From: Escherichia phage phiLLS
Sequence record: NC_047822.1
Direction: 5' to 3' (one strand)
Length of the DNA: 64,000 nt
This document shows positions 16,622-57,927 of this stretch, one piece after another. Both the position numbers and the translations under genes were made by a program. The notes under the pieces are model-generated. The model was not told the origin of the DNA. It saw only the letters and a list, made by a program, of their open reading frames with translations, and searched no databases. The first letter of the stretch is position 1. Every line of letters starts with the position of its first letter.

Positions 16622-16651
16622 TTGCCTTTTGCTTTAAATTTCTGATATAAT
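16622..16651 (+). promoter_or_regulatory. T5-type early promoter
   Basis: -35 TTGCCT, 18-bp spacer, -10 TATAAT. Confidence 0.5.
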
Positions 16652-16681
16652 AGTTATATAAATTGATGGAGGAGTTAACGA

Positions 16682-16957: not shown

Positions 16958-16993
16958 CTAATACAGCACTGAGCAAGTTCTTTAAAATTTGAC

Positions 16994-17022
16994 TTGCTCA
17001 GTGCTATAAAACTTGATATAAT
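16994..17022 (+). promoter_or_regulatory. Promoter embedded in a terminator hairpin, upstream of tRNA genes
   Basis: -35 TTGCTC, 17-bp spacer, -10 TATAAT; the -35 lies in the 3' arm of hairpin agcactgagcaagt...acttgctcagtgct. Confidence 0.5.
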
Positions 17023-17156
17023 AGTTATCTAATTTGGAAAGTTCTTTTTAAGGTAGTTCCTACTTTAGTAGAGTAAATTTTTGGCAGATGGCCCCCACCA
17101 TTTTACCGATAACTCCTAGTCAGTGCGGCAACACTGGCTACCTTAAAGAGAATTTT

Positions 17157-17244
17157 GGGCGTTTATTCCGTAAGTGGTAGCGGAGGGGATTGTAAATCCC
17201 TGGTCATTGCGACTCGAGTGGTTCGACTCCATTAACGCCCACCA
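17157..17244 (+). tRNA. tRNA-Tyr (anticodon GTA), class II, CCA encoded
   Basis: Perfect acceptor gggcgtt/aacgccc, anticodon loop TTGTAAA, long variable arm, T-arm agtgg-TTCGACT-ccatt. Confidence 0.6.
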
Positions 17245-17251
17245 ATTTAAT

Positions 17252-17326
17252 GCACCTATCGTCTAGCGGTTAGGACACCACTCTTTCACAGTGGGAACAC
17301 GAGTTCGACCCTCGTTGGGTGTGCCA
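17252..17326 (+). tRNA. tRNA-Glu (anticodon TTC), CCA encoded
   Basis: D-arm GTCTAGCGGTTAGGAC as in bacterial tRNA-Glu, anticodon stem ccact/agtgg with loop CTTTCAC, T-arm acgag-TTCGACC-ctcgt. Confidence 0.7.
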
Positions 17327-17335
17327 ATTAATAAT

Positions 17336-17406
17336 TGGGGTACGCATAGGTTGCAAATGGGCCTCCAAAACCCATGAAAAGGTTTCGAATACCTTTACCC
17401 CTGCCA
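17336..17406 (+). tRNA. tRNA-Trp (anticodon CCA), compact, CCA encoded
   Basis: Anticodon loop CTCCAAA, T-arm aaggt-TTCGAAT-acctt, acceptor tggggta/tacccct with 1:72 mismatch. Confidence 0.5.
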
Positions 17407-17412
17407 AAATTT

Positions 17413-17487
17413 GCACCTTTAGCTGAGATGGATTAGCGCTTGCCTGAAGAGCTTGAGAGGTTCGTTCGATTCGAACAGGGTGCACCA
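17413..17487 (+). tRNA. tRNA, probable Phe (anticodon GAA), CCA encoded
   Basis: Acceptor gcacctt/agggtgc, D-arm gctg-agatggat-tagc, loop CTGAAGA, T-arm gttcg-TTCGATT-cgaac; anticodon stem weak. Confidence 0.5.
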
Positions 17488-17504
17488 ATTTGAAGGAGCT
17501 GCTG

Positions 17505-17777
17505 ATGCATACTGAAAACTTCTTTATTTACTGCGCGGATAAGTCGCTGAAACGTAGAATTAACAAAGTCTATCATTATCGTGTTAGTCAACAGCCTTAT
17601 GTATATGCTTTTGACGGTGATCACATTCCACTAGAACAATTATCTTGTGATTACATGATATTGAAGAACTTTGACGAGACAAAGATCTCAAGCGTTCATA
17701 ATCGACAGAATCCATTAACGTGGAAATATAAGAAGAAAAAGAAAGGCATCAAATTCTTAAAAAATGTAGTTGCTTAG
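17505..17777 (+). CDS. Hypothetical protein
   Basis: ATG with GAAGGAG RBS right after the tRNA; the ORF-track TTG start at 17490 is less likely. Confidence 0.45.
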   Translation: MHTENFFIYCADKSLKRRINKVYHYRVSQQPYVYAFDGDHIPLEQLSCDYMILKNFDETKISSVHNRQNPLTWKYKKKKKGIKFLKNVVA

Positions 17778-17797
17778 TTTCCAAAAGTTCTGTATAA
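17769..17797 (+). promoter_or_regulatory. T5-type early promoter
   Basis: -35 TTGCTT, 17-bp spacer, -10 TATAAT. Confidence 0.55.
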
Positions 17798-17845
17798 TAA
17801 TTACATAAATTGAACTGGAGAAGCAACATGACAGAATAAGATAAA

Positions 17846-17921
17846 CCGACCGTTGGCTGAATGGCTTAGGCGAAGGATTGCAAATCCTTTTTATGTGAGT
17901 TCAAATCTCATGCGGTCGTCC
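17846..17921 (+). tRNA. tRNA-Cys (anticodon GCA), CCA encoded
   Basis: Acceptor cgaccgt/gcggtcg, anticodon stem aagga/tcctt with loop TTGCAAA, T-arm gtgag-TTCAAAT-ctcat. Confidence 0.7.
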
Positions 17922-17943
17922 AAATTACTAAAGGAAAGAAGTA

Positions 17944-18462
17944 GTGCATACAAAAGTTTTTGATAGTTTGGTAAAGAAAGGCATTGTTACTAATAAGCCT
18001 TTCTGTATAACCGCAGAACTAATCCAAAGATTTATGGAAGAATATATAAATCTTTCAGGAACTAATGGTAATACCAAAAAGAATACAAATACTATGTATT
18101 CGAGAAAACTTGCCGCACTTTCCTTTATAAAGTTTAAGCAGGAAAATAAACTTCCTATTTCTGAAGGTTTTGTATACTGTATTAGTAATCCTGCATGGAA
18201 AAATCAGTATAAAATAGGTATGAGTCAAAATCCAAAAGAGAGATTAGCTCAATATCAGACCTATTCCCCCTATAGGGATTATAAATTAGAGCATTGGTCG
18301 TTTTGGTTTGACAAACGAAAAGGTGAAAAACTAATTCACCAGTATTTCAAAGATTTAAAAGAACATGAGTGGTTTAGTATAAATTCTAGGGATCTTAGTA
18401 AATATCTAGAACGTATTAACTCTAGTTCTGACTTATATGGTTCCTTAGCTCTAATTGGTTAG
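17944..18462 (+). CDS. T5orf172 / GIY-YIG-like domain protein (GTG start)
   Basis: GFVYCISNPAWKNQYKIGMSQNPKERL resembles the GIY-YIG-like T5orf172 domain; AT-rich; 3' end overlaps the next tRNA. Confidence 0.55.
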   Translation: MHTKVFDSLVKKGIVTNKPFCITAELIQRFMEEYINLSGTNGNTKKNTNTMYSRKLAALSFIKFKQENKLPISEGFVYCISNPAWKNQYKIGMSQNPKERLAQYQTYSPYRDYKLEHWSFWFDKRKGEKLIHQYFKDLKEHEWFSINSRDLSKYLERINSSSDLYGSLALIG

Positions 18463-18516
18463 AGCGGCATCTTGTTAAGTTGAGGGTTGCTGGTTCGAAT
18501 CCAGCAGGAACCGCCA
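18439..18516 (+). tRNA. tRNA, probable Asn (anticodon GTT), CCA encoded
   Basis: Perfect acceptor ggttcct/aggaacc, D-stem gctc/gagc, loop TTGTTAA, T-arm gctgg-TTCGAAT-ccagc; anticodon stem weak. Confidence 0.5.
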
Positions 18517-18618
18517 AATTCTGTGTAGAGTTAAGTAAACCGGTAGCCAACCAGCTATCATTGCTGACATCGAATTCAGCCACAGATACCATTTTCATTA
18601 ATAACTGAGGAAATAAGC

Positions 18619-18804
18619 ATGTCCAAGAATGTAATTGCGCAGCTAGAAGTTCATCGTGATAGCACTATCAACAATATTGAAGTTGAAAAGAAATACATCG
18701 AAGAACTTAAACACGATATACTAATAAGTCTCAATCGTCTTAATGTACGAAAAGAGTTTCTTAAAGAACTTAATGCAGCTATTGAAAAACTCAAAGCTGA
18801 GTAA
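18619..18804 (+). CDS. Hypothetical small coiled-coil protein
   Basis: 61-aa ORF with GAGGAAA RBS. Confidence 0.45.
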   Translation: MSKNVIAQLEVHRDSTINNIEVEKKYIEELKHDILISLNRLNVRKEFLKELNAAIEKLKAE

Positions 18805-18813
18805 ATGAATTAT

Positions 18814-18890
18814 GCGACCGGGGCTGGCTTGGTAATGGTACTCCCCTGTCACGGGAGGGAATGTGGGTTCAAATCCCATCGGTCGCGCCA
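18814..18890 (+). tRNA. tRNA-Asp (anticodon GTC), CCA encoded
   Basis: Perfect acceptor gcgaccg/cggtcgc, anticodon stem ctccc/gggag with loop CTGTCAC, T-arm gtggg-TTCAAAT-cccat. Confidence 0.7.
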
Positions 18891-18915
18891 AATTAATTTA
18901 GTATGAGAATATACT

Positions 18916-19263
18916 ATGCGTAATGCCAAAGAAGAGCTGTTACTTGCCTTAAAAAATACTAATTCTGAAGTTAAATGTATTAAAATAGAATTCGGGTATT
19001 ATGGGGATAAAAAAGTTTGGGTATTGCCTTTAGGTTACACAGAAGAAGATATTGAGGATTTTCTTAATAACCTAGACTTTAAATATGACTCTGGGTACGG
19101 TGGACAATTACTTTATGGTAATGTATGGTTTGCCGATGGAACTTGGCTAGAACGTGGAGAATATGATGGTGCTGAGTGGTGGGAATACAAAGCCACACCA
19201 GCAATTCCAGAGGAATGCCGAACAATTAATGGTGAAGTAGATAATACTTTACGGTTAAACTAA
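18916..19263 (+). CDS. Hypothetical protein
   Basis: 115-aa ORF between tRNA genes. Confidence 0.45.
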   Translation: MRNAKEELLLALKNTNSEVKCIKIEFGYYGDKKVWVLPLGYTEEDIEDFLNNLDFKYDSGYGGQLLYGNVWFADGTWLERGEYDGAEWWEYKATPAIPEECRTINGEVDNTLRLN

Positions 19264-19385
19264 TAAAATTTCAGTGCAGAACACGGAGCTAGCAATTCGG
19301 AAGTGCTGACTCATGATAAGCTGCCTATGTACTTGCGAAGCGGTCGTGTCCAAGACTCGGACTCTTGCACTGAAAACAATCAAAC

Positions 19386-19506
19386 ATTCTAGCGTGGTTG
19401 ATGGGGAAACCAGCTTGGCTAGGGCAGAAGCTCGTTCGATTCGAGTGAAAGAATGGTTCTCGTAAGTCCGCACAAGTGATAACAGGTTCGAGTCCTGTCT
19501 AGAATG
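19386..19506 (+). ncRNA. Atypical tRNA-like element with two T-arm-like hairpins enclosed by a perfect 7-bp acceptor-like stem
   Basis: attctag...ctagaat closing stem; D-like arm tggtt-gatgggga-aacca; T-arms gctcg-TTCGATT-cgagt and acagg-TTCGAGT-cctgt; 121 nt. Confidence 0.3.
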
Positions 19507-19692
19507 ACATATTCTGGAGATTCTATGGATTATGAAGAGTTAGATAAATTAGCTGATACATTATCAGAACTATCTGATAATGTAGTAATAAAAGATTCTA
19601 GGATAGACAGTTTTATTGCTGATTATCGTAATGGTATTATCTCTAGGCAAGAACTAGTAGATAAAACTTATCAATATTTAAAGGGAAAGTAA
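19504..19692 (+). CDS. Hypothetical small acidic protein
   Basis: 62-aa ORF. Confidence 0.4.
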   Translation: MTYSGDSMDYEELDKLADTLSELSDNVVIKDSRIDSFIADYRNGIISRQELVDKTYQYLKGK

Positions 19693-19710
19693 ACGAAAGT
19701 TTACTTATTA
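19689..19710 (+). terminator. Terminator-like hairpin
   Basis: gtaaacgaaagtttac followed by TTATTA. Confidence 0.4.
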
Positions 19711-19837
19711 TGTAGGTTCCGATAGATCGGCGGGTCTATTCTGGCATTTAAGAGAAGTCTCGCAAACTTCTTTGTCAGCCGTGGGGTTGGTAGCCTCCAG
19801 GTGGCCTACACAATAAGTAAATTTATTAAAAATTCAT

Positions 19838-19866
19838 TTGCTATTCTGCTTTATTATCTGTATAAT
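19838..19866 (+). promoter_or_regulatory. T5-type early promoter
   Basis: -35 TTGCTA, 17-bp spacer, -10 TATAAT. Confidence 0.55.
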
Positions 19867-19898
19867 ATATTTTATAAAGTGAAGAGAAGGAAAGCAAA

Positions 19899-20057
19899 AT
19901 GAAACACAAGATAGCTCAAGTTTTTATGGCATTATGGTGTATGCCAATAGCTATAACAGCATTTAATCTAGATACTTTTACTATAGAAGAAAAATGTATC
20001 GGATTAGTTAGCGGTTTTAGTATGCTGGGCTTATCTTTGCTGTGGTTAAAGAAATAA
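19899..20057 (+). CDS. Hypothetical small membrane protein (52 aa)
   Basis: ATG with AGAAGGAAAG RBS after promoter; hydrophobic; below ORF-track cutoff. Confidence 0.4.
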   Translation: MKHKIAQVFMALWCMPIAITAFNLDTFTIEEKCIGLVSGFSMLGLSLLWLKK

Positions 20058-20061
20058 TATT

Positions 20062-20139
20062 CTCCGTGTAGCTCAGTTTGGCCAGAGCGTTTCGTTTGGG
20101 GCGATAGGGTCGGGGGTTCAAATCCTCCCACGGAGACCA
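20062..20139 (+). tRNA. tRNA-Pro (anticodon TGG), CCA encoded
   Basis: Perfect acceptor ctccgtg/cacggag, D-stem gctc/gagc, loop TTTGGGG, T-arm ggggg-TTCAAAT-cctcc. Confidence 0.65.
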
Positions 20140-20145
20140 AACAAT

Positions 20146-20223
20146 TGCGGGTTAGATCTCTGGTAGAGATCGCTAGTCTCATAAGCTAGAAAGAGGTAGG
20201 TTCGATTCCTGCACCCGCTTCCA
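20146..20223 (+). tRNA. tRNA with anticodon CAT (Met or Ile2), CCA encoded
   Basis: D-stem gatc/gatc, anticodon stem ctagt/gctag with loop CTCATAA, T-arm gtagg-TTCGATT-cctgc, 1:72 mismatch. Confidence 0.55.
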
Positions 20224-20243
20224 TTTTAATAGAGGATTTCGAA

Positions 20244-20411
20244 ATGAAAGTATTTCGATTAGTAGTAAGTGACAAACGTTTAGGTAATAATACCTCAAGA
20301 TCCTTACTTGCACATTATGGAAAAGATGAAAAAGAAGTAATGGCGGAGTTTGGGATTAATCATTCTTACTTAAAAGTCCATTCTATTAAAGAAGTATACA
20401 ATGGTTACTAA
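20244..20411 (+). CDS. Hypothetical small protein (55 aa)
   Basis: ATG with AGAGGA RBS; below ORF-track cutoff. Confidence 0.35.
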   Translation: MKVFRLVVSDKRLGNNTSRSLLAHYGKDEKEVMAEFGINHSYLKVHSIKEVYNGY

Positions 20412-20412
20412 T

Positions 20413-20491
20413 AGATCGCTAGCTCAATAGGTTTAGTAGCATCCGACTTTTAATCGGAAGGTTCTGGGTTCGAGTCCCAGGCGATCTACCA
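20413..20491 (+). tRNA. tRNA-Lys (anticodon TTT), CCA encoded
   Basis: Perfect acceptor agatcgc/gcgatct, anticodon stem tccga/tcgga with loop CTTTTAA, T-arm ctggg-TTCGAGT-cccag. Confidence 0.7.
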
Positions 20492-20509
20492 ATTTCAAGA
20501 AAAACGCAG

Positions 20510-20538
20510 TTGCTTGATGCTTAATTTCTTGTTATAAT
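20510..20538 (+). promoter_or_regulatory. T5-type promoter driving a 1.3-kb ORF-free RNA-gene region
   Basis: -35 TTGCTT, 17-bp spacer, -10 TATAAT. Confidence 0.55.
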
Positions 20539-20871
20539 ATTTATATAAATTGATGCGAAAATAGCTGCCTAGATACCAGGTGTATGACGTCTACACTAGC
20601 AGAGCTACCGAAAAAGAGATCCTCAGGATAAACGTCGTAGCAAAATTAGTCTGGTATCCATCAATTTAGTTCACTAAGGTATTAGCTCGACCTAGGACTG
20701 GCTGCCAAAAAGCACGATCCCTACGATTCGGGAGAAGTTCTAGATTAGTCCACTAGATTCAGCGGCAACTGAATAGTGTATTGGGTTTGCGAGATGACGC
20801 AGTTCCTTCCGCTCGAAGCGAAGGTGCTGTAGTTACGCCGAGCTAATAGCCTTAGTAAACTAAAGAATTTG

Positions 20872-20947
20872 GGGGAATGGGTCTGCATGGAGTGGACACC
20901 TCGCTTGCACCGAGGACATCAGAACGGTTCGATTCCGTTATTCTCCA
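20872..20947 (+). tRNA. tRNA-Ala (anticodon TGC)
   Basis: Acceptor ggggaat/attctcc, D-stem gtct/ggac, perfect anticodon stem cctcg/cgagg with loop CTTGCAC, T-arm aacgg-TTCGATT-ccgtt. Confidence 0.6.
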
Positions 20948-20955
20948 CAAAATAC

Positions 20956-21033
20956 GCGTGATTGATGGAATTGGCATACATACCGTCCTTAGAAGTCGGG
21001 TTTTGAGGGTTCGAATCCCTTGTCACGCACCAA
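20956..21033 (+). tRNA. tRNA with anticodon TAG (Leu-type anticodon) but short variable loop, CCA encoded
   Basis: Acceptor gcgtgat/gtcacgc, loop CTTAGAA, 5-nt variable loop, T-arm gaggg-TTCGAAT-ccctt. Confidence 0.5.
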
Positions 21034-21144
21034 ATTTGATGGTCAGAGTAAATTAAACCTACTATCTCGGTTGAGCTGTTTTAATGGGTTCGAATCCCAG
21101 CGGGGCGTAACTGCCTGGTGTGATAGAGGCATCATCTTATTATT

Positions 21145-21235
21145 GGAAGAGCAAATCGAATTGGCGACGAAAACCGCTTGGAAAGTGGCTGACTGGTAAA
21201 ACGGCTTGAGAGTTCAAATCTCTCCTCTTCCGCCA
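21145..21235 (+). tRNA. tRNA-Ser (anticodon GGA), class II, CCA encoded
   Basis: Perfect acceptor ggaagag/ctcttcc, loop TTGGAAA, long variable arm, T-arm gagag-TTCAAAT-ctctc. Confidence 0.55.
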
Positions 21236-21247
21236 AACAATTTATAT

Positions 21248-21342
21248 GGTAGGTCAATCCAACGGCTGGCGCTGGACTCCGACTTGAAATCGGTTGATCG
21301 TAGTGATACGGTGTAAGGGTTCGATCCCCTTACCTACCTCCA
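21248..21342 (+). tRNA. tRNA-Ser (anticodon TGA), class II, CCA encoded
   Basis: Perfect acceptor ggtaggt/acctacc, anticodon stem ccga/tcgg with loop CTTGAAA, long variable arm, T-arm aaggg-TTCGATC-ccctt. Confidence 0.55.
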
Positions 21343-21707
21343 AATCTTGGAATATGCCGGAATTGGTAGACGGGACTGCCGAATAGGTTTACTAGGAACA
21401 TCCACTCCTAGAAATATACCTTAAAAGCGGTTGAGTTAAATGGTCTAACTCATGAAGGTTCAAATCCTTCTATTCCTTGATACATCAATGGCTCAAAGTG
21501 TAACGGTGCTATTTGATGCACTTGGAAAGACTTTCCCGACATGCGTTCGGGGGTAAGCTTCTGAGGCTAGAATAGAAGAGTTTCTGGGAGCCGCCACAAT
21601 CGAAAATTCGTACTCGTCTTGAGCTGCGTGCAATAGGAGATAACTTGATTAGTATTCTAGAACATGCTAATTGAGGATGGTTTCGCTAACCCTGCGAGTT
21701 TTCAATT

Positions 21708-21784
21708 GTGGCTATATCATAATTGGTTAATGATCCTGATTGTGAATCAGGCCTATGTGGATTCGAATTCCACTAGCCACCCCA
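21708..21784 (+). tRNA. tRNA-His (anticodon GTG), CCA encoded
   Basis: Perfect acceptor gtggcta/tagccac with C73 discriminator, anticodon stem cctga/tcagg with loop TTGTGAA, T-arm gtgga-TTCGAAT-tccac. Confidence 0.7.
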
Positions 21785-21809
21785 AATTAATTTAAATAGG
21801 AAATAAAAT

Positions 21810-22004
21810 ATGGCTGATTTCTGCAAACAATGCTCCATTGATATGTGGGGCAGAGATACTGGTGACTTAGCTGGTCTGATTACAGAAGCCGAAGTCAAAG
21901 AAGGTTATGGTGCAGTTGTGGTTTGCGAAGGATGCGGAGTCATTCGAGTAGACCATAAAGGTAAGCGCCTTGAAGAACCTGAGCCAGTTACTCTATTTCC
22001 ATAG
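21810..22004 (+). CDS. Hypothetical small Cys-rich (zinc-ribbon-like) protein
   Basis: 64-aa ORF with CxxC...CxxC pairs. Confidence 0.45.
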   Translation: MADFCKQCSIDMWGRDTGDLAGLITEAEVKEGYGAVVVCEGCGVIRVDHKGKRLEEPEPVTLFP

Positions 22005-22017
22005 AGTAAAGAATTAT

Positions 22018-22093
22018 TGGGATGTAGATCAATTGGCAGATCGTCGGCCTCTGACTCCGAAGGTTCCACGTTCGATCCGTGGCATCCCAGCCA
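22018..22093 (+). tRNA. tRNA-Gln (anticodon CTG), CCA encoded
   Basis: Perfect acceptor tgggatg/catccca, D-stem gatc/gatc, loop CTCTGAC, T-arm ccacg-TTCGATC-cgtgg. Confidence 0.6.
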
Positions 22094-22099
22094 AATTAT

Positions 22100-22175
22100 T
22101 GGAGAGTAGTGTAACGGTTAGCACAACGGCCTTTGACTCCGTTAATGGTAGGTTCGATTCCTCCTTCTCCAGCCA
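22100..22175 (+). tRNA. tRNA-Gln (anticodon TTG), CCA encoded
   Basis: Acceptor tggagag/ttctcca, anticodon stem acgg/ccgt with loop CTTTGAC, T-arm gtagg-TTCGATT-cctcc. Confidence 0.6.
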
Positions 22176-22192
22176 ACTTAAAAGGTAAAAAT

Positions 22193-22753
22193 GTGAAGGT
22201 AATACCGGAATTTCCATTATATAGTATATCTGAGGATGGTAAAGTTTGGTCAACTTATTCTAATAAGTTTTTATCCTCTTATATTAACAATGATGGGTAT
22301 CCCTGTTATAAATTACATAAGAAGGGGGTTCAGTATACTCAACTAATACATAGATTATTAGCTAGAGTATACAAAGATCTGCCTTCTCTGGATTCTGACC
22401 TAGAGGTAGATCACAAAGATACTAATATTCTTAACTATGCACTAGAGAATATACAAGTTCTCAGTAAAGAGGATCACAGAAAGAAAACCTTACTAGATAA
22501 TGGGTATACTGCGTATAACAAGGTATGTCCAACTTGCTCAGGATACAAAGATCCCGGAGCTATTCAGTGTAAGGGATGTTCTTCGCTATCCCAAGTAAAG
22601 AATAAAGATGTTACTGCTGAGCAAATAGAATACTGGGTGTCCAAGTATTCATGGGTTAGAGCAGCCAAAGAATTTGGATACTCAGATAATGGACTTCGTA
22701 AAAGGTATAAATCCCTTACTGGTAAAGATCCAAAAACAATAAAACGCGGTTAG
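22193..22753 (+). CDS. HNH homing endonuclease (probable GTG start)
   Basis: HNH motif EVDHKDTNILNYALENIQVL plus Cys-rich C-terminus; ORF-track start overlaps tRNA-Gln; stop overlaps tRNA-Gly. Confidence 0.6.
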   Translation: MKVIPEFPLYSISEDGKVWSTYSNKFLSSYINNDGYPCYKLHKKGVQYTQLIHRLLARVYKDLPSLDSDLEVDHKDTNILNYALENIQVLSKEDHRKKTLLDNGYTAYNKVCPTCSGYKDPGAIQCKGCSSLSQVKNKDVTAEQIEYWVSKYSWVRAAKEFGYSDNGLRKRYKSLTGKDPKTIKRG

Positions 22754-22817
22754 CCTCATGGTGGGGACTCAGCCTTCCAAGCTGATGGAGAGGGTTCGAT
22801 TCCCTCTAGCCGCTCCA
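22746..22817 (+). tRNA. tRNA-Gly (anticodon TCC), compact, CCA encoded
   Basis: Acceptor gcggtta/tagccgc, perfect anticodon stem tcagc/gctga with loop CTTCCAA, T-arm gaggg-TTCGATT-ccctc. Confidence 0.55.
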
Positions 22818-22833
22818 ACTTTAAGGAAACACT

Positions 22834-23085
22834 ATGCACGTTTTTGAGTTTCGTAATAAAAGTACTGATAAGCGAGTTATCATTATTGGAGAAACATATC
22901 GAGCATATGAACAAACTGACGGCTCTGTTATCTTGAATGATGAGAAAGGAGGTTTTAGCTTTTATCCAGAAGAACCTTATGAAGAGTTTCGAAAACAATT
23001 TAACCTAGACTGGAGAAAGCATTTAAACACTGTTGCTCCATCTGTAGTATTGCCAACTACCAGTACTGTACCCTCTAATGGCTGA
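22834..23085 (+). CDS. Hypothetical protein
   Basis: 83-aa ORF with AGGAAAC RBS. Confidence 0.45.
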   Translation: MHVFEFRNKSTDKRVIIIGETYRAYEQTDGSVILNDEKGGFSFYPEEPYEEFRKQFNLDWRKHLNTVAPSVVLPTTSTVPSNG

Positions 23086-23242
23086 CAACCTAAAAGTAAA
23101 GATTGATAAACAAAAGAAACGTGTAGAAGTAGAGATTGGCGAAGAACGTGTTGCCTTTACTTTCGAGTTTCTTCAGCAGTTGGCAATGACAGTAATGTCA
23201 GATAAATCCCCTGTATTTGAAAAAGAAATCCCGTTGAAATAA
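23078..23242 (+). CDS. Hypothetical small protein (54 aa)
   Basis: ATG overlapping the stop of the preceding gene (ATGGCTGA); below ORF-track cutoff. Confidence 0.35.
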   Translation: MADNLKVKIDKQKKRVEVEIGEERVAFTFEFLQQLAMTVMSDKSPVFEKEIPLK

Positions 23243-23252
23243 CGGGATTATC

Positions 23253-23327
23253 GCTCCTAAAGCATTGCTGGCGATGCAGTTGCCTTGTAAGCATCTGAAC
23301 CGGGTTCGATTCCTGGTGGGAGCACCA
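23253..23327 (+). tRNA. tRNA-Thr (anticodon TGT), CCA encoded
   Basis: Acceptor gctccta/tgggagc, D-stem gcat/atgc, loop CTTGTAA, T-arm ccggg-TTCGATT-cctgg. Confidence 0.6.
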
Positions 23328-23342
23328 AATTTAAAAATTCAT

Positions 23343-23371
23343 TTGCTTTCTCCCTTATTTATTGCTATAAT
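23343..23371 (+). promoter_or_regulatory. T5-type early promoter
   Basis: -35 TTGCTT, 17-bp spacer, -10 TATAAT. Confidence 0.55.
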
Positions 23372-23401
23372 ATTTATATAAATTAATGAGAGGGAAACCA
23401 A

Positions 23402-23692
23402 ATGAAACGTTATCTTTCTGTAATATTCCAAACTGGTGGCCAAAGATACACCTATGAATTTCCATCCTCTTGGAAAATCAAAGAGGGTGATCAAGTAGTA
23501 GTGCTAACACCGCGTGAAGGATATAAAGTAGTAACGGTTAAACAAGTATTTCCAAAAGATCATGAACCAGCTAAAGGCATCCGCTATAAGATGATTCATG
23601 GTGTGGTTCGTCAAGTACCACGAACTGAGGTAGAAGTAGATAAGACTGGAGAAACTAAATTCCATTATACTTCTTACTTAGACAGTGTGTGA
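23402..23692 (+). CDS. Hypothetical protein
   Basis: 96-aa ORF with GAGAGGGAAAC RBS after promoter. Confidence 0.5.
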   Translation: MKRYLSVIFQTGGQRYTYEFPSSWKIKEGDQVVVLTPREGYKVVTVKQVFPKDHEPAKGIRYKMIHGVVRQVPRTEVEVDKTGETKFHYTSYLDSV

Positions 23693-23707
23693 TGTAAATA
23701 TTTTAAT

Positions 23708-23784
23708 GCTTCGGTAGCTTAGCGATCTAAAGCACTCGGCCGATAACCGAGAGATCGGGGGTTTAAATCCCTCCCGGAGTACCA
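23708..23784 (+). tRNA. tRNA-Ile (anticodon GAT), atypical loops, CCA encoded
   Basis: Acceptor gcttcgg/ccggagt, perfect anticodon stem ctcgg/ccgag with loop CCGATAA, T-arm ggggg-TTTAAAT-ccctc. Confidence 0.5.
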
Positions 23785-23880
23785 AATTTAGGAATTAAGA
23801 CTATGCGTCCAGGAAAGTTTAAAAAAGCTAATTGGTCTAAAGAGTATAAAGAATACTTACTTAGTCTAGTAAAACATAAC

Positions 23881-23956
23881 AGTTAGTTGGCAGAGTGGTT
23901 ATGCACCTCCTTCATACGGAGCGACTACAGTGGTTCAAATCCACTACTAACTACCA
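23881..23956 (+). tRNA. tRNA with anticodon CAT (Met or Ile2), CCA encoded
   Basis: Perfect acceptor agttagt/actaact, D-stem gca/tgc, loop TTCATAC, perfect T-arm agtgg-TTCAAAT-ccact. Confidence 0.6.
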
Positions 23957-48306: not shown

Positions 48307-49977
48307 ATGGTTATTTCCGCAGAAAAACAAACCCAGATCCTCAATCTTGCCGCTGATTTCAATTTCTATGGTAAACGTCTGCGCGCTACTAAACTGGAAG
48401 TTTGTGACGATATATCAAAAGCGGTTTACGATACTGCAAAACATTCCACCGCGATTTGTGACTGGTTGGAAGCAAATAAACCAGCGAAACCAAAAGCGGC
48501 GAAAGTAGCAAAAGCCATTAAAAACGATGACCGCCCTGAAGCCGCCGGAGTTATTTCTAGCACGGTGGAGCAATGGGAAGTAAAGCAGGGCAACCGCTTC
48601 ATTATCACATCAATCCAGAACAACACGTTCCCGCATAAAAACTTTTTAGCCTCGCTCGAGCAATATGCCCAGTTTATTGGCGCTGATTTGCTTGTTAGCA
48701 AGTTTATTTATAACAAAAACGGTTTTCAAAATGGGGAAGGCGCGGACGGAATAAAATACGATTCCGCGTTTGACAAATATATCTGCAATAAGAACGTATT
48801 TTTAAACAATCGCCGTTTTGCTTTCATGGCTGAGATTAATGTTTTGCCCACCGCAGATTATCCGCTATCTGGATTCGCTGAAACTGCAACGGCTTTAAAT
48901 ATTGAGGGTCTGGCAATTGGGGCGGCTAAAATCACCGCCGAAAGCGTGCCAGCTTTAAAAGGTGAAGTAGTGCGCCGCATGTATTCAACGGGAACGGCAA
49001 CGCTAAAAAACTATATTCAGCAAAAAGCAGGGCAAAAAGCGGAGGCGCTACATAACTTTGGGGCGCTGATTGTTGAGTTCGACGAAGACGGTGAATTTTT
49101 TGTTCGCCAGCTTGAAACGATGGATGAAAGCGGCGTTTTTTACGATTTGAATATTTGCGCTACTCCCGCCGGATGCTATGAAACATCGGGGCATGTTTTA
49201 GGCTTGCAATATGGTGACGTCCACGCTGAAAAACTAGATGAAGAGTGCGCCGCAGCGTCATGGGGACACGGTGACACCTACGGGCTTGTGGATATTCTCA
49301 AGCCAAAATATCAATTCGTCCATGACGTGCATGATTTTACATCACGCAACCATCACAACCGCGCCTCTGGTGTATTCCTAGCAAAACAATACGCCGCCGG
49401 ACGTGATAAGGTTCTGGATGATCTTATCGATACGGGGCGCGTACTGGAAGCAATGGAGCGCGATTTCTCGCAAACAATCATTGTTGAATCTAACCATGAT
49501 CTGGCGTTATCTCGTTGGCTTGATGATCGTAATGCTAACATTAAAGACGACCCAGCAAACGCGGAACTATATCACCGCCTTAATGCTGCAATTTACGGAG
49601 CTATTGCAGAAAAAGACGACACTTTCAACGTGCTAGATTATGCGCTGCGCAAGGTTGCAGGCTGCGAGTTTAACGCTATTTTCCTAACGACTGACCAATC
49701 ATTTAAAATTGCAGGCATCGAGTGCGGCGTACACGGTCACAATGGCATAAACGGCAGTCGTGGCAATCCGAAACAGTTCAAGAAATTGGGCAAATTAAAC
49801 ACGGGGCACACTCATACCGCCAGCATTTACGGCGGCGTATATACCGCTGGCGTGTCTGGTAGTCTGGACATGGGCTATAATGTTGGCGCGTCAAGCTGGA
49901 CGCAAACGCATGTTATTACCTATGCAAACGGTCAGCGCACTTTGATTGACTTTAAAAACGGTAAATTTTTCGCGTAA
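48307..49977 (+). CDS. Pre-early A1-like protein, metallophosphatase-fold nuclease
   Basis: 556 aa; metallophosphatase motifs GDVH, HDVHD, ESNHD. Confidence 0.6.
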   Translation: MVISAEKQTQILNLAADFNFYGKRLRATKLEVCDDISKAVYDTAKHSTAICDWLEANKPAKPKAAKVAKAIKNDDRPEAAGVISSTVEQWEVKQGNRFIITSIQNNTFPHKNFLASLEQYAQFIGADLLVSKFIYNKNGFQNGEGADGIKYDSAFDKYICNKNVFLNNRRFAFMAEINVLPTADYPLSGFAETATALNIEGLAIGAAKITAESVPALKGEVVRRMYSTGTATLKNYIQQKAGQKAEALHNFGALIVEFDEDGEFFVRQLETMDESGVFYDLNICATPAGCYETSGHVLGLQYGDVHAEKLDEECAAASWGHGDTYGLVDILKPKYQFVHDVHDFTSRNHHNRASGVFLAKQYAAGRDKVLDDLIDTGRVLEAMERDFSQTIIVESNHDLALSRWLDDRNANIKDDPANAELYHRLNAAIYGAIAEKDDTFNVLDYALRKVAGCEFNAIFLTTDQSFKIAGIECGVHGHNGINGSRGNPKQFKKLGKLNTGHTHTASIYGGVYTAGVSGSLDMGYNVGASSWTQTHVITYANGQRTLIDFKNGKFFA

Positions 49978-50517: not shown

Positions 50518-51237
50518 ATGAAGATTACCCGTAATTTCCCGCATGTTTCCCGCGTCATGATTTGGGATCTGGATGGCACTATCGTTAACTCATTCCATCG
50601 CGTAGCGCCTTGCTTTGATAGTGAGGGCAATCTAGATCTAAATAAGTATAAAAATGAAGCGTGTAAACATGCTTTGATAATGCAAGATACACTGTTACCG
50701 CTTGTTACCTATATGCGCCAGTGCATGAATGACGCCAACACGTTAAACATTATTTGTACCGCTCGACTAATGAGCAAATCAGATTACTATTACCTACGGA
50801 AGCAAGGGCTGCGAGGGCGTGGGGGTAGCAATATCCGCGTATTTTCCCGCGATACACTGCACAAATATTTTGAAGCTGATAAGGTTAGCGAAATATACCA
50901 CAGCAAAGACGCTATATATAAAAGCCACTATTTTGAGTTATTTAAGCAATTATATCCGAACGCTGATTTCACGATGATTGATGATCATAAAGGCGTGCTA
51001 TCAGCGGCGGCATCATACGGATTTAAAACGCTGGACGCGCAAGCCGTTAACGATATTCTATCGATTGGGGTTACATTGATAGGTGAAACCTTTATCGATG
51101 AATCTCTTGAGGATGATAATGATTATCAGTTCCTGGCCGACCGCCTGCAATTATGTTGGGAAGGTATGACCGAAGAAGAACGCGCAGAATATAGTTGCAG
51201 CCCGCAACAATATATTGAGAAATTAAAAGTTGCGTAA
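50518..51237 (+). CDS. HAD-superfamily 5'-deoxyribonucleotidase-like protein (dmp-like)
   Basis: HAD motif I (IWDLDGTIV) near the N-terminus; 239 aa. Confidence 0.5.
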   Translation: MKITRNFPHVSRVMIWDLDGTIVNSFHRVAPCFDSEGNLDLNKYKNEACKHALIMQDTLLPLVTYMRQCMNDANTLNIICTARLMSKSDYYYLRKQGLRGRGGSNIRVFSRDTLHKYFEADKVSEIYHSKDAIYKSHYFELFKQLYPNADFTMIDDHKGVLSAAASYGFKTLDAQAVNDILSIGVTLIGETFIDESLEDDNDYQFLADRLQLCWEGMTEEERAEYSCSPQQYIEKLKVA

Positions 51238-51401
51238 TAATTAAAGTTGAAATTGTTTCACCTTGCAATTAAAATGGTTGCAGGGTGAAACAGTTAGCAT
51301 GGTAATAGTAACGGGGGTGGCGGTTAGCAGACTAAGTATTTTCGCCGGAGGCAGTGAGCACATCCTCATGTGTAATCTTATGAAATTTCGAGATTTCCAA
51401 A

Positions 51402-51647
51402 TTAGCGCATAGAAGGGTCACCAAACCGATGTTCAGGTCTGAACTCACGGAATCTCTTCCGCGACGCCCGAGAACCATCCGACCATTCTCGTTCAAACTC
51501 CGCACGTTTCTCGTCAAACTTCCGCTCCCTTTCCGCAATCTCCCGCGTCACTCCCGCAATATATTTACGATGCTTGTTGATTGCCGCAGTTGTCCCGAAA
51601 ACCCCCGCGAGTATCCCGATAATAAAAGCAATTACAATACTAAACAT
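51402..51647 (-). CDS. Hypothetical membrane protein
   Basis: 81-aa minus-strand ORF with N-terminal TM helix. Confidence 0.4.
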   Translation of the reverse strand: MFSIVIAFIIGILAGVFGTTAAINKHRKYIAGVTREIAERERKFDEKRAEFEREWSDGSRASRKRFREFRPEHRFGDPSMR

Positions 51648-51831
51648 CTAATTCCCTCTCAATTTGCAGAATACGGGTACTATCACAACGTTGCAGTAGT
51701 GCTAGCTTTTCTAGAGTAACTTGTTGTTTTACCTGAGCTTCTAGAGTTTTTAGGCGGAGATACACGATACGAGAGACAATGAGGATTACCCAGACTAATA
51801 TTACCATTAGTGTAATTGCCACTTCCATCAT
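51640..51831 (-). CDS. Hypothetical membrane protein
   Basis: 63-aa minus-strand ORF with N-terminal TM helix. Confidence 0.4.
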   Translation of the reverse strand: MMEVAITLMVILVWVILIVSRIVYLRLKTLEAQVKQQVTLEKLALLQRCDSTRILQIERELDV

Positions 51832-52239
51832 TTACGTTTCTCCGATAGTAAGGTTTCGATTCTAGCTAAGTGATTATCTAAGATACATTGCCCAATAATC
51901 ACAACCCCCAGTAGTGCAATAATTACCCATTCCATTAAATCCACCCCGCCATAGCTGCTAACCAAAAACCTACGAAGATTAGGAATAATACAAAACCAAA
52001 TCCGTAAATATTAATCCACGCTTCGTACACTTCTCCGCGTCTGTTCTTTCTTTTATTTGACATATCTTTCGTACTCCCGTAAATGTGATTTTTGAAATAT
52101 TCTATAATTTGTGCACAACCAACCGTGCCTGTGGACCCCTAGAAGGGCTTCTACTTTTCTTATATAGTGTTTTCTGCCAGTATACCGTCCAAGAAATAAA
52201 AAATTTAGTTTACTTGGATGTCTTTTTGCTTTATACTAA

Positions 52240-52506
52240 TTACAAGTAATTAGATTGCTCTAGTTTAAATTTACAATCACCGTATTTAAGGTCAAACTGA
52301 CTGAGATCCCACCACCCAAACTTAGTACGGAGCTGTACTACTGGAAAGCGATCTCCCTTAATACGAACTTTTTGAACCTTGAGGCCGTAATGTTCCTCTC
52401 CCGCACCACCAAAAGATTTTACAAATCCCGTACAAAATGGTTTGGGGGCAGGTGCACAACCAGATAACATAACTGCGGCAACTAGTGCAATCACAAACTT
52501 TTTCAT
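52240..52506 (-). CDS. Lipoprotein, putative receptor-blocking lytic-conversion protein (Llp-like)
   Basis: Signal peptide with lipobox (LSGC); divergent from the adjacent receptor-binding protein gene. Confidence 0.55.
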   Translation of the reverse strand: MKKFVIALVAAVMLSGCAPAPKPFCTGFVKSFGGAGEEHYGLKVQKVRIKGDRFPVVQLRTKFGWWDLSQFDLKYGDCKFKLEQSNYL

Positions 52507-52591
52507 ATTTATCTCTCCATTTCTAATTTATGAATCTATTATAGCAAAATAGAGAGATGAAAGCAAATACATTTTTATAATAGGAGATTAT

Positions 52592-54349
52592 ATGGGTTTT
52601 TTCGCTGGAAAATATAGCGATGGTAAGACCGTACTATCTTTAAATACTGAATCTGGTGGTGACATTAATCGTCACTATAGTCCAAATAATAATAGTATTT
52701 TTCATAGTGATATGCCATTTGTCCTAGTTGATGGTACTTATGAGGCAGGATTAGGAGATGCCGGGAATGGGTTTTTTGTCTGTCAGATGCCCTCTGACAT
52801 AATAAATATTAAATCCAACGACCCGGGTAGAGTTATACTAACTGCTATTGAGATTAATGGTACTCATAGGGCTTTTCTTAATGGTACTCAAAGTAAGGTT
52901 GGCCAAACTATAGTTGCTACTCAAGCAGATCCCTTTAGATCTTTTGCTAGTGTTTCTCAAACCAGTGGATTTGCATTTGGTAATAGTCTAGCATCTGGCA
53001 CTTATAATTATAATCCCTCTCTAGGGCATGAAGAATCTATCTCTAGAAATGGTACTGGAGGTACTACGTTACATAGTACCTATCACGGTATAGTTAGGCC
53101 CGGTGCGGGAGCTCCTGTAGGTATTACTGTTGCACAAGCTTTTGAGCAATTGGGTTTCCCTACTAATAGTAGCACAGTACCTGTAGATGGGAATAACCCG
53201 TACTATTGGGATCCCGGATGGATGTCGCCTCTAGGAGCAGCGCATAGAGGGCATGATTGGTTTTATGTCTGCAATTCTAATATACGTGGATATGGTGGAG
53301 TTAGACAAGGGCTCCCAGGTAATGTAAATACTATGTACCACGACGGTGGGAACAGGTTTGTTTGTAGGGGATCTACTACTAATCTAGCTAACCAGTCGGG
53401 TGACTCTACAATACTACAGGATTGGTATAATATAACTCCTACTAAGGTTATTTGGTATGTTCTTAATTTAAGGTACTCGAATGGTGGAATGAGTATTTCA
53501 GGTAATCCCTTTACTGGTTCTGATATTCTTATATCTCCTTCTAATTTCATAATTAAAGGGGTAAGTCTCCCTAATACCGGGTATAAATTTATTAATCAGA
53601 ATGCTTTTGGTAACTTAGGTTATCGTCCTGATATGGAGTATATAGGGAATAACGCAGCGTATACTGGAGCCTTCGGAGATACCACTGCAAGGTGTGAACT
53701 TGTAGGATCTAGTAATGGAGGGTTGTGGTCTCCTGTAGATTATGGAGGGGCTAAATCCCAAATTAGCATTTACAAATTTGGAGCAGGTAAACAGTGGTAT
53801 GTAAACTCTAACGATAATACTATTGGTAATGAGCATGGGGTTGTTTGGGGACCCTCAGCAGTTCCACTGCGACTTTTTGGTGGAAATGTAGGTAGTTCCT
53901 ATATGGGAGATGATATTACTCCCCACTATCCAGGAACGGGTGATAGATACGTTGGTTTATCAACTATTGGGCTAGGTATACCAGGCGGAAATGCTACAGT
54001 AATTCTTACTACTGAAGTTATATCAGGTAATCTTAATTGTGCGGGTGTTCCAGCTAATACATGGAATAATGGTGTGTTTCAAGTGCAAGGAAGAAGAGCG
54101 TATAGCTATAGCGGCGGGGATGCAATATTCCACCAGATTTTAACGCTACCTGTGGGCTATCTAGTACCTTTTCATACTACATCTGCTTTTAGATACACGC
54201 CTAACAATGCTCTTAGTAGAAACAGTTTTATATATACCGTTAAAAATCTAGGAAATGGAAATGTAGAGTTAGGAGTAGTTATGCATGTGAGTTTGGGTAG
54301 CGCAGTTTTCCTACCTAGATTAAGAGTAACAGTTCAACGCCTTACCTAA
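52592..54349 (+). CDS. Putative receptor-binding tail protein (pb5/Oad-like position)
   Basis: 585 aa, Gly/Asn/Ser/Thr-rich; strong AGGAGA RBS; divergent from the lipoprotein gene. Confidence 0.5.
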
Positions 54350-54359
54350 AGGAGGAAAT

Positions 54360-54842
54360 ATGGCAAATGATGTATTAGTACCAGATCTTATGTCCCCTGA
54401 AGGGATGGATGTAATTGAAGCTTATTTACAGTGCGGCAGCGATGTGCCTTCTGCCGCACGTAGTCTTGGAATGTCCGAAATTGCTTTCCGAGATATTATG
54501 AATCGTAGTGAAGTTAAGAACTACTTAAATGATATTTTTATGGAGAGTGGTTTCCGTAATAGGGATCGTTTATTTGGTGTTCTGGATGAAGTTATTAAGC
54601 GTAAGCTGGAGGAACTAGAAGAAACGGGCATGGGTTCTGACCAGGATATTATGGATATTCTCTGGAAAGCACACAAAATGAAGATGGAAGAAATGAAAAT
54701 GATGGTGGAGTTAGAAAAAGCTAAAGCTGCCGTTCGAGCTCCTGCTAATCAGACTAATATCCAGAATAACATTATTGCTGGAGCTGGGGATCAAAACTAC
54801 ATGGATTTAATTACTTCCCTAGCTACTGGAGGTAAGAAGTAA
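54360..54842 (+). CDS. Terminase small subunit (putative)
   Basis: 160 aa immediately upstream of and coupled to the large terminase; HTH-like N-terminus. Confidence 0.5.
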
Positions 54843-56158
54843 TGGAAGTATCAAGACCCTATGTTAATACAGTAGATGTTATTGATTTCGGAATAGATAA
54901 GCGTTTCTTTCGTCTACCTGTTTCAGGAATACTAGCGCAAGAAGGTATTACACCTAATGGTCCTCAAATAGCAATTATCAATGCCCTAGAAGACCCTAGA
55001 CATCGTTTTGTAACGGCGTGTGTATCACGCCGTGTAGGTAAATCTTTTATAGCATATACACTTGGGTTCCTAAAATTGCTGGAACCTAATGTGAAGGTGC
55101 TAGTAGTTGCCCCTAACTACTCACTGGCCAATATCGGATGGTCTCAGATTCGTGGTCTTATTAAGAAGTACGGTCTACAAACCGAACGTGAAAACGCTAA
55201 AGATAAAGAGATTGAGTTAGCTAATGGTTCTCTATTTAAACTAGCTTCCGCGGCTCAGGCTGACTCCGCAGTTGGACGTTCATATGATTTTATCATCTTT
55301 GACGAGGCGGCAATTTCCGATGTGGGTGGTGATGCCTTTAGGGTTCAGCTGCGCCCTACTCTAGATAAACCTAATTCTAAGGCTCTATTTATTTCCACCC
55401 CTCGTGGAGGTAACTGGTTTAAAGAGTTTTATGCCTACGGATTTGATGATACGTTGCCTAACTGGGTATCTATTCATGGTACATACCGTGATAACCCTCG
55501 TGCTGACCTGAATGACATTGAGGAAGCACGTCGTACGGTTAGTAAAAACTACTTCCGCCAAGAATACGAGGCTGACTTCTCTGTATTCGAAGGACAGATA
55601 TTTGATACTTTCAATGCTATCGATCATGTTAAAGACCTCAAAGGTATGCGCCACTTCTTTAAAGATGATGAAGCATTCGAAACGTTGCTGGGTATTGACG
55701 TTGGTTATCGTGATCCTACAGCAGTTCTCACTATTAAATATCATTACGATACGGATACTTACTATGTATTAGAAGAGTACCAGCAGGCGGAGAAAACTAC
55801 AGCTCAGCATGCTGCTTATATTCAGCATTGTATAGATCGTTATAATGTTGATCGTATTTTTGTTGACTCTGCAGCAGCTCAGTTCCGCCAGGACTTAGCT
55901 TATGAGCATGAAATTGCCTCAGCTCCAGCCAAAAAATCTGTCCTAGATGGCCTAGCATGTCTGCAAGCACTGTTCCAACAGGGCAAGATTATTGTAGATG
56001 CCTCATGTTCCTCCTTAATTCATGCATTGCAGAATTATAAGTGGGACTTCCAAGAAGGTGAAGAGAAATTATCACGTGAAAAACCACGTCATGATGCTAA
56101 CTCTCACCTTTGTGATGCGCTGCGCTATGGAATTTACTCTATTTCCCGTGGTAAATAA
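54842..56158 (+). CDS. Terminase large subunit
   Basis: Walker A SRRVGKSF and Walker B DFIIFDEAA, then nuclease-like C-terminus. Confidence 0.8.
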   Translation: MEVSRPYVNTVDVIDFGIDKRFFRLPVSGILAQEGITPNGPQIAIINALEDPRHRFVTACVSRRVGKSFIAYTLGFLKLLEPNVKVLVVAPNYSLANIGWSQIRGLIKKYGLQTERENAKDKEIELANGSLFKLASAAQADSAVGRSYDFIIFDEAAISDVGGDAFRVQLRPTLDKPNSKALFISTPRGGNWFKEFYAYGFDDTLPNWVSIHGTYRDNPRADLNDIEEARRTVSKNYFRQEYEADFSVFEGQIFDTFNAIDHVKDLKGMRHFFKDDEAFETLLGIDVGYRDPTAVLTIKYHYDTDTYYVLEEYQQAEKTTAQHAAYIQHCIDRYNVDRIFVDSAAAQFRQDLAYEHEIASAPAKKSVLDGLACLQALFQQGKIIVDASCSSLIHALQNYKWDFQEGEEKLSREKPRHDANSHLCDALRYGIYSISRGK

Positions 56159-56272
56159 ATAAATATAGGATGGGATACTACTCAGTTGGTATCCCATTCC
56201 TGTATTTTAAAATCCCCTTTACAAATTCGATACGATTATGTATACTATATTCATACAGTTGAGGAGAACACT

Positions 56273-56710
56273 ATGGCAAGCAATATAAAATATAAACGCG
56301 ATGCTATATCCCTTATGAGAGACGGAATAAAAAGTCAATATAAAAAAGACTCTCAATGTGCTATCTGCGGTTGTGCTGAAGAATTAGAGCTTCATCATTA
56401 CCATACGGTGTCTCTACTAGTTAAAAAATTTGCTAAAGAACTCCAATTGGATTTCACTGACGAAGAAACAGTCCTTTCAAATAGGACGGCATTCTATGAT
56501 CGATATAGGCATGAGCTAGTAGAAGACACTGTTACCCTCTGTGTACACCATCACCAATTATTACATAAGGTTTACACAAAAGAACCTCCTTTATTTTCTG
56601 CTAATAAGCAAAAAGTGTGGGTTCAAAAGCAGAAAGACAAATTACAGAATCCTCAAGAAAAGACACAAGTCAAGACTGAAACAAAATCAGGATTCGCAAG
56701 GTTCTTATAA
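56273..56710 (+). CDS. HNH endonuclease (packaging-associated)
   Basis: Cys/His zinc motifs CAICGC...HHYH...CVHHHQLLH; ATG at 56273 with GAGGAG RBS. Confidence 0.55.
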   Translation: MASNIKYKRDAISLMRDGIKSQYKKDSQCAICGCAEELELHHYHTVSLLVKKFAKELQLDFTDEETVLSNRTAFYDRYRHELVEDTVTLCVHHHQLLHKVYTKEPPLFSANKQKVWVQKQKDKLQNPQEKTQVKTETKSGFARFL

Positions 56711-57927
56711 TGGGTTTTAAAAGCTGGATTACTGAAAAGCTAAATCCGGGTCAACGTATTATAAGAGACATGGAACCAGTTAGTCATCGCACTAACCGTA
56801 AGCCTTTTACCACTGGACAAGCCTACAGTAAAATTGAGATTCTCAATAGAACTGCTAATATGGTTATAGATAGTGCGGCGGAGTGTTCTTATACTGTCGG
56901 AGATAAATATAATATTGTTACGTACGCTAATGGCGTCAAAACAAAGACTCTAGACACTCTCTTAAATGTACGACCTAATCCATTCATGGATATAAGCACA
57001 TTCCGTAGACTTGTAGTCACTGACCTACTTTTTGAAGGTTGTGCATACATCTATTGGGATGGCACATCGCTTTACCACGTCCCGGCTGCTCTTATGCAGG
57101 TCGAGGCAGATGCCAATAAGTTTATCAAAAAATTTATATTTAATAATCAGATAGACTATCGCGTAGATGAGATTATCTTTATAAAGGATAACAGTTACGT
57201 GTGTGGCACAAATTCTCAAATTTCTGGACAATCTCGTGTTGCTACTGTTATTGATTCTCTTGAGAAGCGTTCTAAGATGCTTAACTTTAAAGAGAAATTC
57301 CTCGATAACGGAACCGTGATTGGTCTTATTCTTGAAACGGATGAAATCCTGAACAAGAAATTGCGTGAGCGTAAACAAGAAGAATTACAACTCGATTATA
57401 ATCCTAGTACTGGTCAGTCTTCTGTCCTGATTCTAGATGGTGGTATGAAAGCTAAACCGTACTCCCAAATATCCTCTTTTAAAGATCTAGACTTTAAGGA
57501 AGACATCGAAGGATTTAATAAATCTATTTGTCTAGCCTTTGGAGTTCCGCAAGTACTGCTTGATGGTGGTAATAATGCGAATATTCGACCAAACATCGAA
57601 TTGTTTTATTATATGACTATCATTCCTATGCTGAACAAACTGACTAGTTCTCTTACTTTCTTTTTTGGTTATAAGATTACTCCTAATACTAAGGAGGTAG
57701 CTGCATTAACACCAGATAAAGAAGCTGAGGCTAAACATTTAACCTCATTGGTTAATAATGGTATTATGACTGGTAACGAAGCTCGTTTAGAGCTGAACCT
57801 TGAACCTTTAGATGATGAGCAGATGGATAGGATTCGTATTCCTGCTAACGTTGCTGGTTCTGCAACAGGTGTATCTGGTCAAGAAGGTGGTAGACCTCAA
57901 GGTTCCACCGAGGGAGATAAAGAATGA
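56710..57927 (+). CDS. Portal protein
   Basis: 405 aa between terminase and prohead protease. Confidence 0.6.
   Translation: MGFKSWITEKLNPGQRIIRDMEPVSHRTNRKPFTTGQAYSKIEILNRTANMVIDSAAECSYTVGDKYNIVTYANGVKTKTLDTLLNVRPNPFMDISTFRRLVVTDLLFEGCAYIYWDGTSLYHVPAALMQVEADANKFIKKFIFNNQIDYRVDEIIFIKDNSYVCGTNSQISGQSRVATVIDSLEKRSKMLNFKEKFLDNGTVIGLILETDEILNKKLRERKQEELQLDYNPSTGQSSVLILDGGMKAKPYSQISSFKDLDFKEDIEGFNKSICLAFGVPQVLLDGGNNANIRPNIELFYYMTIIPMLNKLTSSLTFFFGYKITPNTKEVAALTPDKEAEAKHLTSLVNNGIMTGNEARLELNLEPLDDEQMDRIRIPANVAGSATGVSGQEGGRPQGSTEGDKE

Follow-up and report, generated by a model that had tools for sequence, protein, structure and literature searches.

The 64,000-nucleotide stretch of Escherichia phage phiLLS DNA analysed here (sequence record NC_047822.1; hereafter the window) derives from a Tequintavirus and carries a divergently transcribed pair of genes for a lipoprotein (Llp) and a receptor-binding protein (RBP), which we interpret, with a probability of about 0.9, as a BtuB-specific host-recognition and lytic-conversion module, in which the RBP would bind BtuB and Llp would block it. 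Judged by sequence, the RBP is a member of the pb5/Oad/Hrs family that falls in the AKFV33/SPLA5b subtype within the BtuB-binding clade, and Llp is classified as a BF23-type receptor-blocking, superinfection-exclusion lipoprotein. Already known for T5-like phages are the layout of the module, the RBP subtype of 585 aa, the receptor and exclusion by the identical Llp. The subtype is present in about 100 sequenced phages and the module is a textbook one, offering little new biology. The receptor assignment matters for combining T5-like phages in biocontrol cocktails: if BtuB is the receptor, resistance would arise through btuB and not fhuA, and Cit2-like phages would be redundant with, rather than complementary to, BtuB-dependent Tequintavirus and Epseptimavirus phages.

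In the proposed mechanism, the RBP would be located at the tip of the central tail fibre and bind the TonB-dependent vitamin B12 transporter BtuB irreversibly, leading to commitment to DNA ejection. Expression of llp from a T5-type promoter, probably early by analogy with T5 llp, would yield a lipoprotein that is exported, lipidated at Cys17 and held in the outer membrane facing the periplasm, where it would bind BtuB and fix it in a form unusable by the RBP. This block would exclude superinfecting BtuB-dependent relatives and spare the progeny from loss on the debris of lysed cells.

Organization of the divergent gene pair

The exact ORFs of the pair (Table 1) bear out the original prediction of an 88-aa lipoprotein gene transcribed divergently from a 585-aa gene. 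As the RBP gene is directly followed by terS, terL, a small HNH-like ORF and the portal gene, in that order, it heads the late/structural block, in line with its predicted position at the start of the structural module. Its location upstream of terS-terL and its divergent orientation relative to the lipoprotein gene are common to T5, BF23, DT57C, AKFV33 and SPLA5b. Homologues of the RBP and the lipoprotein were identified in 539 and 400 phage records, respectively, and this conservation across hundreds of records indicates that both ORFs are genuine genes and not chance ORFs. The hrs-llp module of BF23 (genome OR083247; Mondigler et al. 2006) is alike in gene order, orientation and receptor family (BtuB), and shares 98% DNA identity across llp and the intergenic region.

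Table 1. Coordinates of the llp-RBP gene pair and neighbouring features in the window.
Feature	Coordinates	Strand	Basis or remark
Four small ORFs downstream of llp, co-oriented	51402..52063	minus	PHROGs 8596, 6369, 5851, 6447
llp, 88-aa prolipoprotein	52240..52506	minus	ATG start, ORF listing; Pfam LPAM_1; PHROG 1119
Signal peptide of llp product (aa 1-16), ending in lipobox LSG/C	52459..52506	minus	Translation; Pfam LPAM_1
Divergent intergenic region, 85 bp	52507..52591		Between llp and RBP gene
llp promoter	52538..52566	minus	Regex match to T5 promoter consensus
RBP gene, 585 aa, pb5/Oad/Hrs family (by sequence)	52592..54349	plus	ATG start; PHROG 4815; PDB 8a8c_B
terS	54360..54842	plus	Terminase pair supported by PHROG 3802 / PHROG 2 and Pfam Terminase_6N/6C
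terL	54842..56158	plus	Terminase pair supported by PHROG 3802 / PHROG 2 and Pfam Terminase_6N/6C
Small HNH-like ORF between terL and portal	56186-56710	plus	PHROG 3497
Portal gene	56710..57927		Downstream of terL and HNH-like ORF

The llp promoter, found by a regular expression search of the reverse complement of the intergenic region, has the form TTGCTT-N17-TATAAT(A). The consensus TTGCTT(N17-18)TATAATA is annotated at the same site in the AKFV33 record as a T5 promoter, and a Shine-Dalgarno sequence (GGAGAG) is located between the promoter and the llp ATG. The intergenic DNA as a whole is 97-99% identical to its counterparts in BF23, DT57C and AKFV33. A generic sigma-70/terminator scan of positions 51300-54900 detected promoter-like sites less often than in shuffled controls, with no site between llp and the RBP gene; it missed the llp promoter because TTGCTT matches TTGACA at only three of six positions. 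Neither the generic sigma-70 scan nor the search for the T5 consensus yielded a convincing promoter for the RBP gene in 52507-52591, where the plus strand contains a single TATAAT (52576-52581) that overlaps with the Shine-Dalgarno sequence and is not accompanied by a -35 element. A late promoter of non-canonical type may drive the RBP gene.

The four small ORFs beyond llp encode products of 42, about 35, 63 and 81 aa and are homologues of T5.159-162, labelled single-pass membrane proteins in the record of T5. The same arrangement is found in T5, BF23, DT57C and Bas34. In the JLBYU40 record, one of these four ORFs is labelled 'putative receptor blocking protein' without evidence. On the other side of the gene pair, the ORF between terL and the portal gene contains a CxxC...HHH motif and weakly matches a PHROG of HNH endonucleases. 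Its position is that of T5.153 and of an ORF in BF23 with the annotation 'nicking endonuclease'. The true start of this HNH-like ORF is probably an internal ATG (MASNIKYK...).

The lipoprotein Llp

The N-terminus of Llp, MKKFVIALVAAVMLSGC, represents a signal peptide that ends in an L-S-G-C lipobox, and residues 1-18 match Pfam LPAM_1 (E = 5e-5). The predicted mature protein comprises 72 aa and starts at Cys17. Sorting of lipoproteins to the outer membrane is governed by the +2 rule, and Llp has Ala at position +2, directly after the lipidated Cys, which is consistent with an outer membrane location. Llp is identical to its counterparts in BF23 (88 of 88 residues), AKFV33 and Bas34 (SelmaRatti), and shares 98.9% aa identity with Llp of DT57C, from which it differs in one residue, and 95.5% with that of SPLA5b; in total, 179 phage records contain an Llp that is at least 95% identical. 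A protein-database search retrieved only 11 clusters of homologues with 58-99% identity, indicating that the family is narrow, and the alignment available for AlphaFold2 modelling was therefore shallow.

Functional tests of BF23-type Llp date from 2006 and 2016. Exclusion activity has been attributed to the BF23 Llp (Mondigler 2006, as cited in PMC4728585). The module of DT57C and DT571/2 likewise combines a divergent RBP gene with a conserved llp, and leaky expression of cloned DT57C llp lowered the plating of BF23 and DT57C-group phages more than 100-fold and left T5 unaffected (Golomidova et al., PMC4728585). In T5, the periplasmic Llp recognizes the FhuA plug in a non-native conformation and thereby causes two of the extracellular loops to turn inward and cover the pb5 site (PMC9586334). 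By analogy, we infer that the window Llp may bind the BtuB plug from the periplasm and cause an allosteric closure of the extracellular loops.

Both Llp and T5 Llp match PHROG 1119 over its full length (E = 1.8e-26 and 1.1e-19, respectively). In contrast, the mature proteins share no significant sequence similarity, with an hhalign probability of 0.3% and a two-sequence BLASTP E-value of 0.009 over 30 aa, and homology to T5 Llp is therefore not claimed. A phmmer search of Llp against the PDB did not recover T5 Llp and returned only chance matches to ovomucoid and a CBM. The AlphaFold2 model of mature Llp, based on the shallow alignment, has a pLDDT of 83.7 and contains five strands and a C-terminal helix; a Foldseek search with this model gave no significant match. 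A fold shared with T5 Llp (8A60 chain B, 7QJF) is regarded as no more than plausible. Cys1, Cys9 and Cys62 of mature Llp are invariant in 12 homologues, and the Cys residues of T5 Llp are Cys1, Cys11 and Cys58. As an intramolecular disulfide has been described for T5 Llp and Cor (PMC9586334), the two conserved Cys residues of Llp would be expected to form a disulfide as well.

Llp might instead act mainly in a manner unlike that of T5 Llp, by occluding BtuB at the cell surface or by changing BtuB levels, and not by jamming the plug from the periplasm. We regard this as rather unlikely, as the two lipoproteins have in common their PHROG and a lipidated Cys with two conserved Cys residues, their genes match in genomic position and orientation, both kinds target a TonB-dependent transporter, and T5 Llp ranked first among structural matches in the PDB, alongside a Foldseek search that gave none of significance.

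The Cor lipoproteins of T1/phi80-like phages are further small outer membrane lipoproteins that inactivate the TonB-dependent receptor of their own phage, and they share the PHROG 1119 label. In contrast to the proposed BtuB-blocking Llp, they act on FhuA, and small siphoviruses encode them downstream of gpJ. Their similarity to Llp is marginal, as illustrated by the weak tblastn match to Cor of phage grams (34% identity, E = 7e-4).

The receptor-binding protein and its receptor

The RBP is rich in Gly (14.0%), Asn (9.1%) and Ser (8.7%), as originally noted, and its residues 1-585 match PHROG 4815 "receptor binding tail protein" (E = 1.7e-275), which is also matched by T5 pb5 and BF23 Hrs. A phmmer search against the PDB retrieved the T5 pb5 chains 8a8c_B and 8b14_B (E about 7e-51), and a Pfam search returned no match for either the RBP or terS. 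Assignment of the RBP to the pb5 family, along with an Llp identical to that of BF23, corroborates the predicted llp-oad arrangement. T5 pb5, the FhuA-binding counterpart encoded by oad in the T5 oad-llp pair (structures 8A8C, 8B14, 8A60), is 640 aa in length (NC_005859, T5.157), so that the predicted difference in size stands, and it is only about 30-36% identical to the window RBP (36.4% globally).

At the level of global aa identity, the RBP is closest to those of Cit2 (99.8%, one residue different), JLBYU40 (97.9%), SPLA5b (97.6%, with 14 mostly conservative substitutions) and AKFV33 (95.9%). The AKFV33/SPLA5b/Cit2-type RBPs are equal in length to the window RBP, from which they differ by 1 to 24 substitutions, and are accompanied by Llps with 95.5-100% identity; by this sequence comparison the window RBP is assigned to the same subtype, whose 585-aa form was first described in AKFV33 in 2012. 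Global identity is lower to the RBPs of DT57C (586 aa, 73.5%) and Bas34 (70.7%) and to BF23 Hrs (595 aa, only 68.3%). Searches of phage genomes by tblastn resolved sharp identity bands, with about 98 records at 95% or above, followed by DT571/2 (73%), SPC35 (72%), many Salmonella phages (67-70%) and Yersinia phage phiR2-01 (55%), whereas RBP types of 640 aa and longer reached about 27-31%, with about 31% for 640-aa RBPs other than T5 pb5.

Three clusters have been distinguished in the phylogeny of T5-like RBPs (PMC8594841). The window RBP groups with those of the BtuB-dependent phages BF23, DT57C, SPC35 and SPLA5b, apart from the FhuA and FepA types. For SPLA5b, btuB emerged as a susceptibility gene of S. 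Typhimurium in a TraDIS screen, and no plaques were formed on a btuB deletion mutant (PMC10949491). The use of BtuB by DT57C was demonstrated by sequenced resistant clones with inactivated btuB genes and by cross-exclusion (PMC4728585), and that by BF23 goes back to classic work as cited in later literature. Based on these relationships, BtuB is the supported receptor of the window RBP, and the suspected departure from T5 specificity takes the form of a BF23/BtuB type, as suggested by the near-identity to the SPLA5b RBP and the shared BF23 Llp.

The RBP differs most from BF23 Hrs in residues 91-120 and 151-270, where identity drops to 33-53% (33-47% in residues 150-270). These stretches overlap the N-terminal part of the protein that earlier work has linked to receptor recognition (PMC4728585). 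Given the strong divergence in residues 150-270, the contacts of the RBP with BtuB may differ from those of BF23 Hrs. A broader proposition, to which we assign slightly less than even odds, is that the BF23-type and T5 Llps are deep structural homologues and that the former jams BtuB on its periplasmic side through the same reverse allostery, making exclusion independent of the loops that each RBP contacts, and that the RBP subtypes contact BtuB differently, tracking the variation of BtuB loops among Escherichia, Salmonella and Citrobacter. If both parts were true, the mechanism of T5 Llp and FhuA would extend to a second TonB-dependent transporter.

Relative to T5, DNA homology extends up to position 52104 and resumes at 54312, and between 52105 and 54311 only a 117-bp patch around the intergenic region can be aligned (69% identity). 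The whole llp-RBP cassette of ~2.2 kb thus represents a BF23-type alternative to that of T5. In comparison with BF23 and DT57C, DNA identity is 97-99% across llp and the intergenic region and 95-96% in terS, but only 60-76% in the RBP gene, which thus stands out as the only divergent island amid near-identical flanks. Golomidova et al. (PMC4728585) had already noted this divergence and located a recombination point between hrs and llp. The near-invariant Llp pairs with at least three RBP subtypes, namely the BF23 type (595 aa), the DT57C type (586 aa) and the AKFV33/SPLA5b type (585 aa), whose mutual identity is only 68-74%.

This mosaic structure, with an RBP gene of low DNA identity between flanks of 95-99%, indicates that recombination between llp and RBP genes did occur, and it might be taken to mean that the RBP recognizes another outer membrane protein (FepA as in H8, or one specific to Citrobacter) and that Llp is a mismatched leftover of such an event. 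We consider this very improbable, since each of the three RBP subtypes paired with this Llp includes a member with experimentally established BtuB dependence (BF23, DT57C and SPLA5b), identity to the FepA binders H8 and S124 is reported as only 27.7% in the Cit2 paper (PMC12980165), and the 585-aa subtype is widely found together with this Llp (about 98 RBP and 179 Llp records, each at least 95% identical), whereas a mismatched pair would be expected to be counterselected.

Even less credible is that the RBP binds FhuA like T5 pb5, as published for Cit2 on the basis of a stated 96.9% identity of its RBP to the T5 RBP (NC_005859) and its clustering with T5 (PMC12980165, 2026), because pb5 in the cited record is a 640-aa protein with only 36% global identity to the window RBP, itself a 99.8% match to the RBP of Cit2; the same paper lists 30.8% identity between Cit2 and S131 (FhuA proposed), near the value measured here for genuine T5 pb5, and groups Cit2 with BF23 and SPC35 in its Llp tree; the cognate Llp has the same sequence as the BtuB blocker from BF23, and its one-residue variant in DT57C does not exclude T5; and the btuB-dependent SPLA5b carries a 97.6% identical RBP. 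Other identities given for Cit2 in that paper (73.2% to DT57C, 71.8% to SPC35 and 66.7% to BF23) agree with those computed here. As the window RBP is 97.1-97.4% identical (tblastn) to those in records named 'T5-like' or 'T5_ev219', the published 96.9% probably came from such a record as a mislabelled reference, and the FhuA assignment for Cit2 appears to be wrong.

Cit2 reportedly fails to plate on the BtuB-carrying E. coli K-12 (PMC12980165). However, phages whose RBPs share 97.6-97.9% identity with the window RBP were isolated on K-12 strains (JLBYU40 on MG1655 and vB_EcoS_MM-1 on W3110), and the block to Cit2 in K-12 is therefore probably not at the level of the receptor. JLBYU40 was also considered as a clue to the receptor by way of an fhuA-deleted isolation host; its host carries a pstSCAB-phoU deletion, which is uninformative in this respect.

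Wider genomic context of the window

The 2.4-kb region around the gene pair produced megablast matches in 280 phage records, nearly all of them T5-like (Demerecviridae, Markadamsvirinae). The best match to the DNA of the llp-RBP cassette was Citrobacter phage vB_CfrD-Cit2 with 99.8% identity, whereas over 25 kb the best DNA matches were only about 90-92% identical.

The window also contains 21 tRNA genes clustered at 12136-23956, all on the plus strand and including two each for tRNA-Met, tRNA-Gln and tRNA-Leu, as well as the pre-early A1 DNA-transfer gene (48307-49977) and a dmp-like phosphatase gene (50518-51237). The tRNA cluster and the A1 and dmp-like genes are typical of T5-like phages. 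The end of the AKFV33 record corresponds to about position 51359 of the window, where the alignment with Cit2 also stops, 57 nt before the end of the Cit2 record. In BF23, the equivalent position marks the inner edge of the terminal repeat. As the window runs on beyond this position into the pre-early genes, the long terminal repeat appears to have been collapsed or circularly joined in the source assembly.
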